Shown here piece by piece: positions 19,301 through 25,300 of a stretch of 64,000 nt of DNA. Position 1 is the first letter of the stretch, and each line of letters begins with the position of its first letter. The notes under the pieces are model-generated. The model did not search any database. It saw only the letters and a program-made list of their open reading frames with translations, and was not told the DNA's origin. The stretch is from assembly GCA_963805975.1 (NCBI GenBank), contig CAWDVR010000001.1:1097577-1161576 (forward strand), written 5' to 3'. The position numbers were made by a program, and so were the translations under genes. The stretch comes from an uncultured Acidobacteriota bacterium (GTDB taxonomy: Bacteria > Acidobacteriota > Thermoanaerobaculia > Multivoradales > SZUA-115).

Positions 19301-22300
19301 TGCCGAGGTCACCGGTGCGGTAGAGCCGCTCGCCGGCGAAGGGGCCGAACGGGTCCGGACGGAACCTCTCGGCGGTCAGCCGCGGCTGGCCCAGATAGCC
19401 GCGCGCCAACCCTTCGCCGGCGAGCAGGATCTCACCGGGCACTCCCGCCGGCAGGCGCTCGAGGCGGCGGCTGACGAGCACCGCGCGCAGGTTGCGGATC
19501 GGCCGGCCGATGGGCGGGGGCCCGCTCGTCCCGGCGTTCACCCGCGAGACGGTCGCGACTACGCTGCACTCGGTCGGCCCATAGTGGTTGAGGAGTGGAA
19601 AGGGCGGGGTGTGGCGGACCGGCGCGAGCGCGTCGCCACCCGTCAGCAGGGCGCGCAACGCGAGGCGGGGAGCGAGGCCCGAGACCGGTGCGTCCGCGAG
19701 CAACGACTGGGCGAAGGGGGTCGCCAGGAACGCTAGCGAGATGCGCTCCTCCACCAGCCAGCGCTGCAACGCCGGCGCCGTGGCGCGGGAGGCCTCTCCC
19801 AACCGGTGCAGGCTCGCCCCGGCGGCCAGCGCCGGCCAGATCTCCCAGCCGGAGGCGTCGAAGGCGACGGCGGCGGTCCAGGCGACCCGGTCCGCCGGCT
19901 CCAGCCGGTAGGTGGCGCGATGCCAGTGGACGAGATTGGCGAGGCCGCGGTGCGGCACCACGACCCCCTTGGGTCGGCCGGTCGAACCCGAGGTATAGAG
20001 GACGTAGGCGGCGCTGTCCGGCTCCGTCGCGAGAACCTCGAGGGCCGGCCCCGCCGCCGGCGCGGGGTCGAGGCCGAGACGAGCGACGCCGCCGGCGCTC
20101 CAGGCGAGGTCGTCGGCCAGCCGCGCGGTGTCCGTCGAGGCGAGGAGCACCCTGGCCCGTGAGTCCTGGAGCATCCAGCCCAGGCGCTCGTGTGGCAGCT
20201 CGGGGTCGAGCGGGAGATAGGCGCCCCCCGCGGCGAGGGTCGCGAGATAGCCGGCGACCGCCGAGGCGCCGGAGGGAGCGAGGACGCCGACGACCGCTTC
20301 GGTGCCGACTCCCGCTGCCCGCAGGCCCGCGGCGAGCCGCGCCGCTTGGCGGGAGAGCGAGCCGTAGCTCTGCCACAACGCGCCGTCGACCAGCGCCACG
20401 GCGTCCGGCCGCTCGACGGCCTGCGCCGCGACCCAGCCGGCCACCGTGCCGGTCGGGTCGCCCGAGGTCTGTGCCGAAAGCTGTCGCGTGTCGCTCCACT
20501 CCAGCCCCAGCTGGTGCCGCTCCTCCGGGGTCCACCACGGCAGCTCGGCGACGGGTGTTGCCGGCGCCACGGCTACCGCGGCGGCGAGGAGGGCGGCGTA
20601 GTGGCGGGCGATGCGCTGGACGGTGGTGGCGTCGAAGAGGTCGCGGTCGTAGGCGATGGCCCCGGCGAGCCGGCCCCCGTCCCCTTCCCAGAGATGGAGC
20701 TCGAGGTCGAAGCGGGTGGCGTGGACCTCTACCGGCTCGGGGCGGCAGTCCAACCCGGCGAGCGGCAGCGTCGTGGCGGGAGCGGCCTGGAAGGCGAAAG
20801 CTAGCTGGAAGACGGGATTGCGCGACAGGTCGCGGCGCGGGACGAGCGATTCGACGAGCTTCTCGAACGGCAGATCCTGGTGCGCGTAGGCGGCGAGGGT
20901 GCGCTCGCGGGTGCGCGCCAGGAGCTCGCGCACGGACGGCCTCCCGCCGAGATCTCCCACCATCACTAGCGTGTTGACGAACAGCCCGATCAGCGGCTCG
21001 AGCTCGCTCCGGCCCCGTCCCGCGACCGGCGAGCCGACAAGGATCCTCTCCTCCCCGGTCAGCCGGGCAAGAAGGGCCTGGAAGCCCGCCAGGGTGACCA
21101 TGGCGAGCGTCGCTCCCACCTCGCGGCCGAGCTGTCGCAGGCCGTCCGCGAGCCCGGCCGGCAGCCCGACGGGGACCGCGGCGCCACGGAACACCTGGAT
21201 CGCCGGCCGCGGCTTGTCCGTGGCGAGCTCGAGGACCGGCGGCTCCTCGCCCAGCAGCTCCTGCCAGTAGGCGAGCTGCCCGGCGAGCGCCTCGCCCGTC
21301 CAGCGCTCGCGTTGCCACAGCGCATAGTCGCTGAACTGCACGGCGAGCGCGGGCAACGGCGAGGGCCGATTTTCCAGCCCTGCCGCGTAGAGGGCCACGA
21401 GCTCCTGGTCGAGGATCTCCAACGACCAGCCGTCGGTCGCAATGTGGTGGAGGACGAGCGAGAGGACGTGGGTTTCGGGGCCGAGGCGCAGCAGCCGGGC
21501 GCGGAGCAGCGGCGAGGTCGCGAGGTCGAAAGGCCGGGTGGCGAGCTGCCGCCCGAGGGCGCGCCGCTGCCCGTCCCGTGCCGGCTCCGGCAGGCCGGAG
21601 AGATCGACGACCGGCAGGCCGCGCGGCACTGCCGGGGAGATCCACTGGGCGGGCTCGTCGCCGTGCTCGCCGAAGGTGGTGCGCAGGATGGCGTGCCGGC
21701 AAACGATCTCGCGGAGGGCGTCCGCCAGCGCCCGGACCCCGAGAGCGCCGCCGATCTCCAGGCTCGTGGGCACGTTGTAGAACGCGCTGCCGGGAAGCAG
21801 GCGGTCGAGGAAGAACAGCCGCCTTTGGGCGAACGAGAGGGGGAGCGGGCCGTCGCGCCGGCCCGGCGCGATCGCCGCCGAGGTACTCGTCCCGGTGGTG
21901 CCTGGCTCGGCGAGGGTGCGCAGGAGGGCGCGCGACAGGCCCGCGACCGTGGGCGCCTCAAAGAGCGTGGCGAGCGGGAGCTCGACGCGGAGGACGTCCC
22001 GCAGACGCGAGATCACCTGAGTGGCGAGCAGGGAATGGCCGCCGAGGTCGAAGAAGTCGTCGTGCCAGCCGATGCCACGGCCCGCCGTCCCGGCGGTTGC
22101 CCCCGTCACGAAACCCCATACCTCGGTTCCCAAGACCTCGGCCCAGACGTCGGCGACCAGCGGCTCGAGACCGGTCGCTGGAGCCGTTGCCACCCGCGGG
22201 TGGAGAATCGCCCGCGGCGTTTCCCCCGTCTCGTCATCCCACCGTCCTGCCGAGCTCTCGGCCTGCTCGACCCGCCGTTGCGGGCCGCGGTCCCACGCCA

Positions 22301-25300
22301 GGAGAAGCTGCCGGCGCTCCCCGGCGGCGAGCCGCGGCAGCTCCGCGAGAACTGCCTCGGGATGCTCGACCACGGCCTCGACCAGGGCGCCGAACTGCAT
22401 CGCCATCCGCGCGACGGTCGCGGCATCGAACAGCGCCCGGTCGTAGATCCACAGGCCGCGCAGCCCGTCGCCCTCCGGCCAGACGTGGAGCTCGAGGTCG
22501 AACCGCGTCCAGCGCACCTCAGGGACCACCCGCGAGATCGCCACCTCCGCCGCCGGCAGCGTCGGGCTGGGCGGCATCTGGTACGCGAACACCACCTGGA
22601 AGAACGGGTTGCGGGAGAGGCTGCGAGCCGGGGCCAGCTCCTCGACCAGCTTGTCGAAGCCGAGATCCTGGTGGGCGTAGGCGCCGAGGGCGGCGGACTT
22701 CACCCGCTCGATGAGTCGGCTGAACGTGGGCTCACCGGTGAGATCGCCCACCATCACCAGGCTGTTGACGAAGAGACCGATCAGGTCCTCGATCTCGAGC
22801 CGGTCGCGCCCCGCGACCGGCGAACCGACCGCCACTCGCTCCTGCCCGCCGGCCCGCGCCAGCCAGGCGAGGAAGGCCGCGAGGAGGGTCATCGCCGGCG
22901 TCGCGCCGGCGCGCCGCCCGAGGGCGCGGAGGGGGCCGAAGAGGTCCGGCGGCAGATCGGCGTCACAGCTCGCGCCCTGGTACGCGGGATGCGTCGGCCG
23001 CGCCCGGTCGGTCGCGAGACCGAGCGGCGGCAGCTCGCCGAGCGCCTGGCGCCAGAACTCGAGGTGGGGAGCGATCGCCTCCCCGTGCTGCCATTGCCGC
23101 TGCCAGACCGCGTAGTCGGCATAGCGGGCCGGCAGCTCGGCGAGACGCGGCGGACGGCCTTCGCAGCCCGCGGCGTAGAGCTCCGCGATCTCGCGGTGCA
23201 GGATGGCGAGAGAGGTGCCGTCCGAGACGATGTGGTGGTGGGTGAGGAGGAGATGATGCTCGCTCGCCCCGAGGCGGAGCAGCCACGGCCGGAAGAGGGG
23301 GCCTCGCACAAGGTCGAAAGACCGCTCCGCCTCCTGACGGGCGAGCTGGCGCGCCGCTGCCAGGCGCTTGCCCCCAGCGAGCCCGGCGAGATCGACGACC
23401 GGCAGGTCCAGGTGGCCGGGCGACTGCACCACTTGGGCGGGCCGGCCGCCGGGGGCCGGGAAGACCGTGCGCAGGACATCGTGGCGGCGGACGATCTCCC
23501 GCAGAGCCAGGCCGAGCCCCCGCGGATCCAGCTCGCCCTGCAGCTCGAGGGCGAACGGGGTGTTGTAGAACGGGTTGTCCGGCACCAGCTGCTGCAGGAA
23601 CCACAGGCGCTGCTGGGCGAACGAAAGGGGGGCCGCGGCACCATGGCTCGCCGGACCGGCGAGGCCAGCCACCAGCGGTGGCGGCGGTGATCCATGATCG
23701 CGGGCGAGGGCCGCCTGGAGGCAGCGGGCGACCCCGGCGACCGTCGGCGCCGCGAACACGTCGGCGAGCGGCAGCTCGACCTGGAAGACGTCGCGCAAGC
23801 GGGCGAGGGCGCGGGCGAAGAGCAGCGAATGGGCCCCGAGGTCGAAGAAGTCGTCGGCGACGCCGAGCCGGGAGACGCCGAGGGTCTCGCTCCAGATCTC
23901 GACCAGGATCTCCTCGAGGCCGCTCCTGGGAGCGAGGAGGCCGGCCGCCGGCCGCTCAGCGGCGTCTTGCCGCGCGGAGCTGCCGGCGCGGAACACCTCT
24001 GCGGTCCGCAGCGCCAGGGCGGTGCGGTCCACCTTGCCGTGGCGGGTGAGCGGCAGAGCGTCGAGGAAGACGAAGAACGAAGGCACCAGGTGGGCGGGCA
24101 GCAGGCGTCCGAGGCGCCGGCGGAGGAGGGCGGCGTCGAGCTCGTCCTCCGAGCCCGGCGCGCGCACCACATAGGCCACGAGATGGCGGTCCTCGTCCGC
24201 CATCTCGTGCACCACCACTGCCGCTTGCGCGACACCCGGCTGGGCCGCCAGGGTCACCTCGACCTCGCCCGGCTCGACGCGGAAGCCGCGGACCTTCACC
24301 TGCTGGTCGAGCCGGCCGAGGAACTCCAAGGTGCCGTCGGCGCGGAAGCGGGCGCGGTCGCCGCTGCGATAGAGCCGGCCGGGACCCAGAGGGTCGGGCA
24401 CGAAACGCTCCGCCGTCCAGCCGGGCCGGGCGAAGTAGCCGCGGGCGAGGCCGCTTCCGCCGATGCACAGCTCGCCGGGAACGCCGATCGGCACCGGGCG
24501 GCCACGGCGGTCGAGCAGCACGACGCGGGTATCGCCGATCGGCCGGCCGATCGGGATGGGCTGGTCGGGGTCGCCCCCGCCCGGTCCCGTCATCGCGTGA
24601 CAGGCGGCGAAGGTGGTGCTCTCGGTCGGGCCGTAGCCGTTGACCAGCCGGGTGCCCGGCAGAGCCGCGAGGGCGGCTCGCACGTGCGCGGGCGAAAGCA
24701 CGTCGCCGCCCGCCAGAAGCTCCTCGACGCCCGCCAGGGCCGGCAGCTCCGAGTCGACCATCTGGTGAAAGAGCCCCGCGGTCAGCCACAGGCGGTTGAC
24801 CCGGTGCCGCACGATCGCCGCCCCGATCTCGGCGAGGGACAGCCGGCCGGCCGGCGGCAGCACCAGCCGGCCGCCTTGCAGCAAGGTACCCCAGATCTCC
24901 AGGGTGGCGGCGTCGAAGGCGGTCGGCGCGAGCTGCAGGAAGACGGCCCGGGAGGAGAGCGTCATGAACCCGCCGTGCCGCACCAGCCGCACCACGCCGC
25001 GATGGGGCACGGCGACCCCCTTGGGCTCGCCGGTCGAGCCGGATGTGAACATCACGTAGGCGAGGTGATCCTCCGTCGTCGCCGTGACCGGCGGCGTGCC
25101 GGGCTGCCTGGCGAGGAGCGGATCGTCGAGGTCGACGTGCGGGCCGTGATCCGCGATGGCCAGGTCCGCGCCGGCAGTCAGACGCGCGGACCTCTCGCCG
25201 AGCACGAGCCCGCCCGGCGGTACGACGAGGCGGAGCATGCGAGCGAGGCGCTCCGGCGGGGAGGCGGGATCGAGGGGCACGTAGGCGCCACCCGCCGCGA

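Follow-up and report, generated by a model that had tools for sequence, protein, structure and literature searches.

How does a module of a nonribosomal peptide synthetase (NRPS) operate when it has a condensation (C) domain and a carrier (T) domain, and no adenylation (A) domain to load the carrier? The question is raised by module 4 of a giant NRPS encoded in a 64,000-nucleotide stretch of contig CAWDVR010000001.1 (hereafter the window means this whole stretch), which comes from an uncultured Acidobacteriota lineage. The synthetase has at least 11 modules, as seen in a motif map and in Pfam scans of 12 module-sized pieces, and no known product. Its gene is a stop-free frame of the minus strand running from nucleotide (nt) 33464 to nt 3 (11,154 codons, a product of at least 11,154 amino acids, aa) that leaves the window at the left end; the 3' side of the gene lies beyond that edge, and the window shows only the right (5') flank. 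Protein residue i is found at nt 33464-3(i-1) on the minus strand.

Module 4 contains no adenylation domain

Module 4 is a genuine A-less C-T module with the reading frame preserved. The initial annotation had described it as a full C domain ending in the normal C-A linker, a stretch of about 25 residues, and then an A-T linker with a typical carrier, the whole being read as a clean excision scar. The four peptides quoted there are all encoded on the minus strand in the same frame, and the features of the region are as follows.

22302..23633, minus strand: C4 condensation domain, aa 3278-3721 (PF00668, 327.7 bits, profile positions 5-456 of 456)
22284..22340, minus strand: retained C-A linker LPRLAAGERRQLLLAWDRG, aa 3709-3727 (junction profile and alignment of modules 2-10)
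22203..22283, minus strand: scar PQRRVEQAESSAGRWDDETGETPRAIL, 27 residues, aa 3728-3754
22128-22202, minus strand: quoted peptide HPRVATAPATGLEPLVADVWAEVLG, located in frame
22167..22202, minus strand: retained distal A-T linker HPRVATAPATGL, aa 3755-3766 (profile and comparison with modules 6, 7, and 10)
21924..22166, minus strand: T4 carrier (PP-binding) domain, aa 3767-3847 (PF00550, 54.8-57.7 bits)
22077..22121, minus strand: insertion in T4, approximately VWGFVTGATAGTAGR, 15 residues, Gly/Ala/Thr-rich, approximately aa 3782-3796
22026-22061, minus strand: DDFFDLGGHSLL with the phosphopantetheine Ser3811 (Ser codon 22032-22034)

The C domain is indeed complete and followed by its usual linker. 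The short stretch between the two linkers is present as well, although it has 27 residues rather than 25. The A-T linker and the carrier resume in frame with the Ser intact; the carrier, however, is not wholly typical because of the 15-residue insertion, and the scar, while keeping both linkers and the frame, is to that extent not entirely clean.

The absence of a cis loading enzyme, also proposed from the initial reading, is borne out by Pfam and by a profile of our own. In a 191-aa piece spanning the junction, Pfam detects PP-binding only, and neither AMP-binding nor AMP-binding_C at E ≤ 10. The second profile was built from the nine A domains of this protein and run with all heuristic filters off; it gives only negative bit scores in the three coding-strand frames of 21900-22420. 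The A3 and A8 core motifs are absent from 22050-22330, and the motif map has no A3 or A8 at aa 3138-4491. AMP-binding and AMP-binding_C are present in all other complete modules (9/9), and all NRPS domains outside module 4 score at the usual strength in Pfam. Compensating frameshifts and hidden A remnants in other frames were also considered, and nothing was found in 21900-22420.

From the end of C4 to the start of T4 there are approximately 45 residues, in place of an A domain of approximately 520 residues. The C-A linker of module 4 aligns throughout with a profile of 138 C-to-A junctions (39-41 bits; consensus ErqqLlvewnd), and LPRLAAGERRQLLLAWDRG matches the ER-QLL-EW-DT stretch found after every other C domain of the NRPS. 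On the carrier side, a profile of 135 A-to-T junctions resumes at VATAPATGLEPLVADVWAEVLG (19.3 bits, profile positions 41-69); positions 1-40, the A10 motif included, are unmatched, hence no A10 relic is seen in module 4. In length, the scar corresponds to a normal variable linker together with roughly a dozen N-terminal residues of an A domain. Its ETPRAIL segment resembles the N-terminus of A domains (tPdavAl) weakly and not significantly, and we take it as a hint at most: the segment is placed as expected and gains approximately 3 bits, and 6.6% of shuffled sequences do equally well (p ~0.07). In an AlphaFold2 (AF2) model of C4-T4 with a mean predicted local distance difference test score (pLDDT) of 85.8, the C domain has pLDDT >90 over residues 1-440, the C-A linker is helical (model residues 444-455), residues 468-496 have pLDDT <50, and a helical carrier follows with moderate confidence; the scar is predicted to be mostly disordered.

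An A domain could in principle be real and have been dropped when repeated NRPS modules collapsed in assembly. Repeats are common in NRPS genes, including one of 3.2 kb with 93% identity in the present gene, and the source genome is apparently metagenome-derived or a singleton. Still, we find such an artefact hardly credible. In a self-comparison of the gene, DNA similarity to paralogous modules ends at approximately nt 22402 and returns at nt 22061, and the 340 nt over the junction (22062-22401) have no similarity to any other module. Collapse is unlikely because it joins homologous sequences, while this junction is unique and the reading frame is preserved across it. The scar peptide is unique too: the confirmed relatives found with the patterns WDDETGET and GWHDDFFD are all at most 52% identical. 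The source contig is 1.52 Mb long, and C-T junctions with linkers of 15-50 residues recur in many independent assemblies.

Condensation domain and origin of the module

C4 is of the ordinary LCL type, with the C1 motif SFAQQRLW and HHIVSDG at aa 3410-3416 (nt 23217-23237), and among solved structures it is most similar to ordinary C domains (5u89, Txo1/2, TycC6). The closest relatives of all are its own paralogues C11, C8, C7, C5, and C10, with 52-55% identity; an A domain comes after each of C5, C7, C8, and C10, and the one after C11 has its beginning at the window edge. By similarity to C4, the C domains from 16 other A-less modules take ranks between 41st and 215th of 218. Because C4 groups with paralogues having A domains, in-frame loss of the A domain from a duplicated C-A-T module appears to be the best-supported origin; the lost segment would begin some 12 residues inside the A domain and stop short of the A-T linker, with the C domain, both linkers, and the carrier kept. 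A-less modules are polyphyletic, because the other A-less C domains rank so far from C4. The loss is something that we infer and do not observe, because no orthologue keeping the A domain was found.

C domains of A-less modules show more deviations at conserved columns than do C domains with an A domain behind them (median 6 vs. 3, Mann-Whitney p = 1.9e-4, n = 10 vs. 108). Diagnostic substitutions common to A-less C domains, e.g., at a freed C:A interface, were considered as well; none is convincingly recurrent, and the deviations are scattered.

Carrier domain and its loop insertion

Apart from the insertion, T4 is an ordinary carrier. It scores 97.3 bits with our own profile, its core is off consensus at 1 of 23 conserved columns (median, 1.5), and its identity to the remaining GGHS-type carriers of the NRPS is 55-62%, a range that these also span among themselves. 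The insertion sits between helix 1 and the DDFF..GGHS loop and amounts to a net +15 residues relative to the T profile. Among 199 full-length T domains T4 is the only one with such an insertion, and the second longest is +5; AF2 models the segment, with low confidence, as an extension of helix 1 plus a loop.

A frameshifted stretch is ruled out by the other frames, and no tandem or slipped repeat was found as the origin of the insertion. The scar (WDDETGET) and the insertion (WGFVTGAT) share a direct repeat of 18/23 nt, which is at chance level, with approximately 1.5 such pairs expected by our estimate.

The insertion is the one unusual detail of module 4. With considerable doubt, one may see in it an adaptation to the missing cognate A domain, either a docking or reach element or a device for pass-through by an LCL domain. 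If the former were true, the insertion would enable T4 to be charged by a non-cognate A domain, be it A3, A5, or that of a free enzyme; if the latter, C4, an ordinary LCL domain, would shift the chain from T3 to T4 without elongation, and AmbE-type transfer would extend beyond dehydrating C domains.

Comparison with known A-less modules

A-less modules and trans loading are already well documented experimentally, and module 4 opens no new question in this respect. One close case is CmnI/VioI, module 3 of capreomycin/viomycin synthesis, which consists of C and T without A, is loaded by CmnA-A1 or VioA-A2, and has a carrier with an unusual extension (PMC12400406). The C domain of CmnI is a detectable relative of C4 (PDB 9uay, 147 bits). 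However, CmnI is small and stands on its own, whereas module 4 is part of a single chain exceeding 11,000 aa; CmnI has its extension at the N-terminus, and in module 4 the extra residues are within loop 1; and module 4 is known from its sequence, with no MbtH-like gene visible in its right flank.

In HMWP2 (Cy2-PCP2, yersiniabactin) and in the fungal siderophore synthetases SidC, SidD, and NPS6, the A-less unit is loaded by the upstream A domain and repeated residues result (cited in PMC7539972 and PMC12400406). Here, as in module 4, an A-less condensation-carrier unit stands in cis directly after a complete module, although HMWP2 uses heterocyclisation (Cy) domains and C4 is LCL. In thalassospiramide assembly lines, A-less modules are loaded in trans by the A domain of another module (bioRxiv 10.1101/560987).

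Supply by separate proteins is known for WS9326A, where the A-less C-PCP of Cal19 is served by the stand-alone A-PCP Cal22/Cal23, and for module 9 of syringomycin SyrE, supplied by SyrB1/SyrC (PMC7539972). Module 4 shares with these a C-T didomain within a multimodular NRPS. The Cal19 and SyrE pathways are of the lipopeptide type, and their clusters encode A-T genes plus an MbtH or a transferase nearby, whereas the 30 kb of visible flank beside the present NRPS contains none of them. Finally, in AmbE (Q-A-MT-T1-C2-T2-TE, AMB), T2 takes the chain from T1 without the addition of a residue (review PMC10880069). AmbE and module 4 both have an A-less C-T after a complete A-T unit; AmbE-C2 is a dehydrating (modAA) domain and C4 is not, whereas C2, C3, and C9 of the same NRPS resemble AmbE and McyA.

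Domain mapping places A-less C-T modules in 15 of 125 matched proteins and in three loci. The scars differ among these junctions, and some keep an A10 relic, e.g., LTPNGELDRRAM in protein P0064, and also P0001; these differences and relics argue for independent losses of the A domain. Individual cases include two consecutive A-less C-T modules in a metagenome-assembled genome of Acidobacteriota (locus L027, 13784-17983); an A-less C-T that apparently ends the NRPS gene in Micromonospora and a related actinomycete (loci L022 and L026, 10289-11875); and further proteins, P0001, P0003, and P0064 among others. Across these cases the linkers have 15-50 residues.

Loading of the module 4 carrier

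The initial annotation had offered three readings for T4: loading in trans, skipping, or a role as tandem or shuttle carrier. In the proposed mechanism, holo-T4 would be aminoacylated in trans by an A domain located elsewhere, C4 would join the peptidyl chain from T3 to aminoacyl-T4, and C5 would hand the product on with the T4-bound chain as donor. We consider trans loading followed by normal condensation moderately likely, and prefer it because the active sites are intact and the carrier core is ordinary. The domains next to module 4 are the following.

23715..23918, minus strand: T3, upstream carrier, aa 3183-3250 (Pfam, 56.5 bits)
20508..21845, minus strand: C5, downstream LCL condensation domain, aa 3874-4319, with HHIATDG (Pfam, 311.6 bits)
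24033..25496, minus strand: A3, nearest upstream A domain (Pfam), code DALWLGGTFK, Val-like
18978..20426, minus strand: A5, nearest downstream A domain (Pfam), code DAWFLGHVVK, Leu-like, same as A7

The codes were read against a GrsA fragment, which as a control reproduced DAWTIAAICK. T3 carries DLGAHSLL, i.e., GAHS in place of GGHS, a variant present in 3 of 212 T domains compared; its Ser is kept, and T3 is probably functional.

An A domain of the same synthetase working twice is a possible loader, A3 and A5 being the candidates named by position; were the neighbour A3 (Val-like) or A5 (Leu-like) to load T4, the product would contain a repeated residue. With nearly equal weight, the loader may be a separately encoded A or A-T protein, its gene lying past the left edge or at another place in the genome. 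The initial annotation had seen no free-standing A domain or acyl-CoA ligase to the right of the gene, and our searches agree: Pfam finds no AMP-binding domain (acyl-CoA ligases included) among 20 right-flank genes to 60 kb, a six-frame scan of 33.5-64 kb with C, A, and T profiles gives nothing above 6 bits, and no convincing MbtH signature is seen in the right flank.

Several observations weigh against a functional module loaded in this way. The right flank of approximately 30 kb offers no loader: genes for A domains, carriers, MbtH proteins, and transferases are all absent from it. Orthologues of module 4 with more than approximately 54% identity were not found in GTDB representative genomes (best identities ≤52%), a 5.8-billion-protein set (≤52-54%), or Joint Genome Institute (JGI) metagenome contigs (≤51%). 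Of 91 columns with conservation of 90% or more, C4 departs from consensus at 8-9 (median, 3); it has Thr for Trp in HHxxxDGWS, and is the most divergent of the six LCL paralogues at conserved columns. The T4 insertion is unique and could impair the domain, and the junction has a GC content at third codon positions (GC3) that falls among the lowest 1-2% of all windows of the gene. This low GC3 says little about a foreign origin, since other inter-domain linkers of the gene are also low.

Part of these data would fit a T4 that is never aminoacylated, giving a product one residue below the module count, which we rate as unlikely. The chain would either move from T3 to the free T4 thiol and on to C5 without residue gain, or go from peptidyl-T3 directly to C5. 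The lack of a loader within the window, the unique loop insertion, and the divergence of C4, in line with the stronger deviation of A-less C domains as a group, are consistent with these routes, and precedents exist in the transthioesterification by AmbE (review PMC10880069) and in programmed module skipping (bioRxiv 10.1101/560987). However, the AmbE C domain is dehydrating (modAA) while C4 is an ordinary LCL domain, and AmbE (7r9x) is not among the solved relatives of C4 at E ≤ 1e-20. Skipping is at odds with the intact Ser and core of T4, and some 570 idle residues would be costly to keep in either case. The carrier of the skipped myxochromide module is said to be damaged, reportedly in work by Wenzel in 2006.

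That the loss of the A domain inactivated the module or the whole assembly line, leaving a decaying relic with no product or a truncated one, seems to us quite improbable. The genome is a singleton with no orthologous cluster in the searched collections, and both the raised divergence of C4 at conserved sites and the low GC3 of the junction would agree with decay; but the 33-kb frame runs at 73% GC without a stop or frameshift, which argues for ongoing selection, the other domains score normally, the T4 core is conserved, and a recent internal duplication of 3.2 kb (93% identity) stayed in frame.

Module 4 appears to be a tidy natural case of a linear NRPS turning nonlinear, its A domain removed at linker boundaries and its C domain, T domain, and frame surviving. 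For structure prediction, the gene does not reveal residue 4, and the module count may exceed the length of the peptide by one residue. For engineering, the junction suggests natural breakpoints after the C-A linker and before the AP-T-x-E of the A-T linker, with a tether of approximately 45 residues tolerated.

Layout of the synthetase

The module composition, from the motif map and Pfam, is as follows.

Modules 1-4, minus strand: M1, Cstarter-A-T; M2 and M3, C-A-T; M4, C-T
Modules 5-11, minus strand: M5, C-A-T-E; M6-M10, C-A-T; M11, C and the beginning of an A domain

The A domain of M11 begins at the window edge, with the A4 motif at aa 11131. Open reading frames on the plus strand over the NRPS are likely antisense artefacts in DNA of 73% GC; they are fragmented and overlap the single GC3-rich frame of the minus strand.

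The 3.2-kb intragenic repeat (93% DNA identity, minus-strand gene) relates 3161-6362 (aa 9035-10102) to 12698-15902 (aa 5855-6923), so that A9-T9-C10 almost duplicates A6-T6-C7; between T6 and T9 the cores agree at 100%, and other module pairs show 65-71%. This A-T-C repeat looks like a recent duplication or gene conversion, and constitutes an assembly hazard.

Three C domains differ in type from C4: C2 (approximately 28812-30134), C3 (25554-26799), and C9 (6336-7631), all on the minus strand, have HHA/VILDGWS and YPLTRLQxGM...GLYHDVFSY. Each comes after a module with a Thr-like code (A1, DFWSVGLVHK; A2, DFWNIGLVHK; A8, DFWNIGMVHK) and with a carrier of the GGDSI type. The best solved relatives of C2 are McyA (8jbr, 363 bits) and AmbE (7r9x, 235 bits), ordinary C domains reaching at most 140 bits. 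By these motifs and similarities, C2, C3, and C9 are probably dehydrating (modAA) C domains, and the product may hold three dehydrobutyrines.

Right flank of the gene

The genes of the right flank encode a patatin-like lipase, an ArsA ATPase, a radical SAM protein, an amino-acid permease, and a cupin; further, an S8 peptidase, HtpG, a polysaccharide deacetylase, a GT2 glycosyltransferase, and an epimerase. The nearest matches of HtpG are in Acidobacteria metagenome-assembled genomes, at 76%, 69%, and 66% identity, the last from Thermoanaerobaculia, and this assigns the window to Acidobacteriota. The gene of the patatin-like phospholipase (33465-34529, minus strand) is directly upstream of the NRPS, its stop codon abutting the NRPS frame in the same reading frame. 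An identical patatin gene is present in sequencing run ERR12035939. A role of this lipase in acyl-chain supply is conceivable, because the first domain of the NRPS is a C domain of the starter type.

The GC content falls from approximately 0.73 to 0.56-0.60 at 34000-40000, right before the start of the NRPS. This low-GC stretch holds the genes of the ArsA-type ATPase (34900-36075, minus strand) and the radical SAM protein (36930-38864, plus strand), and may be an acquired island.

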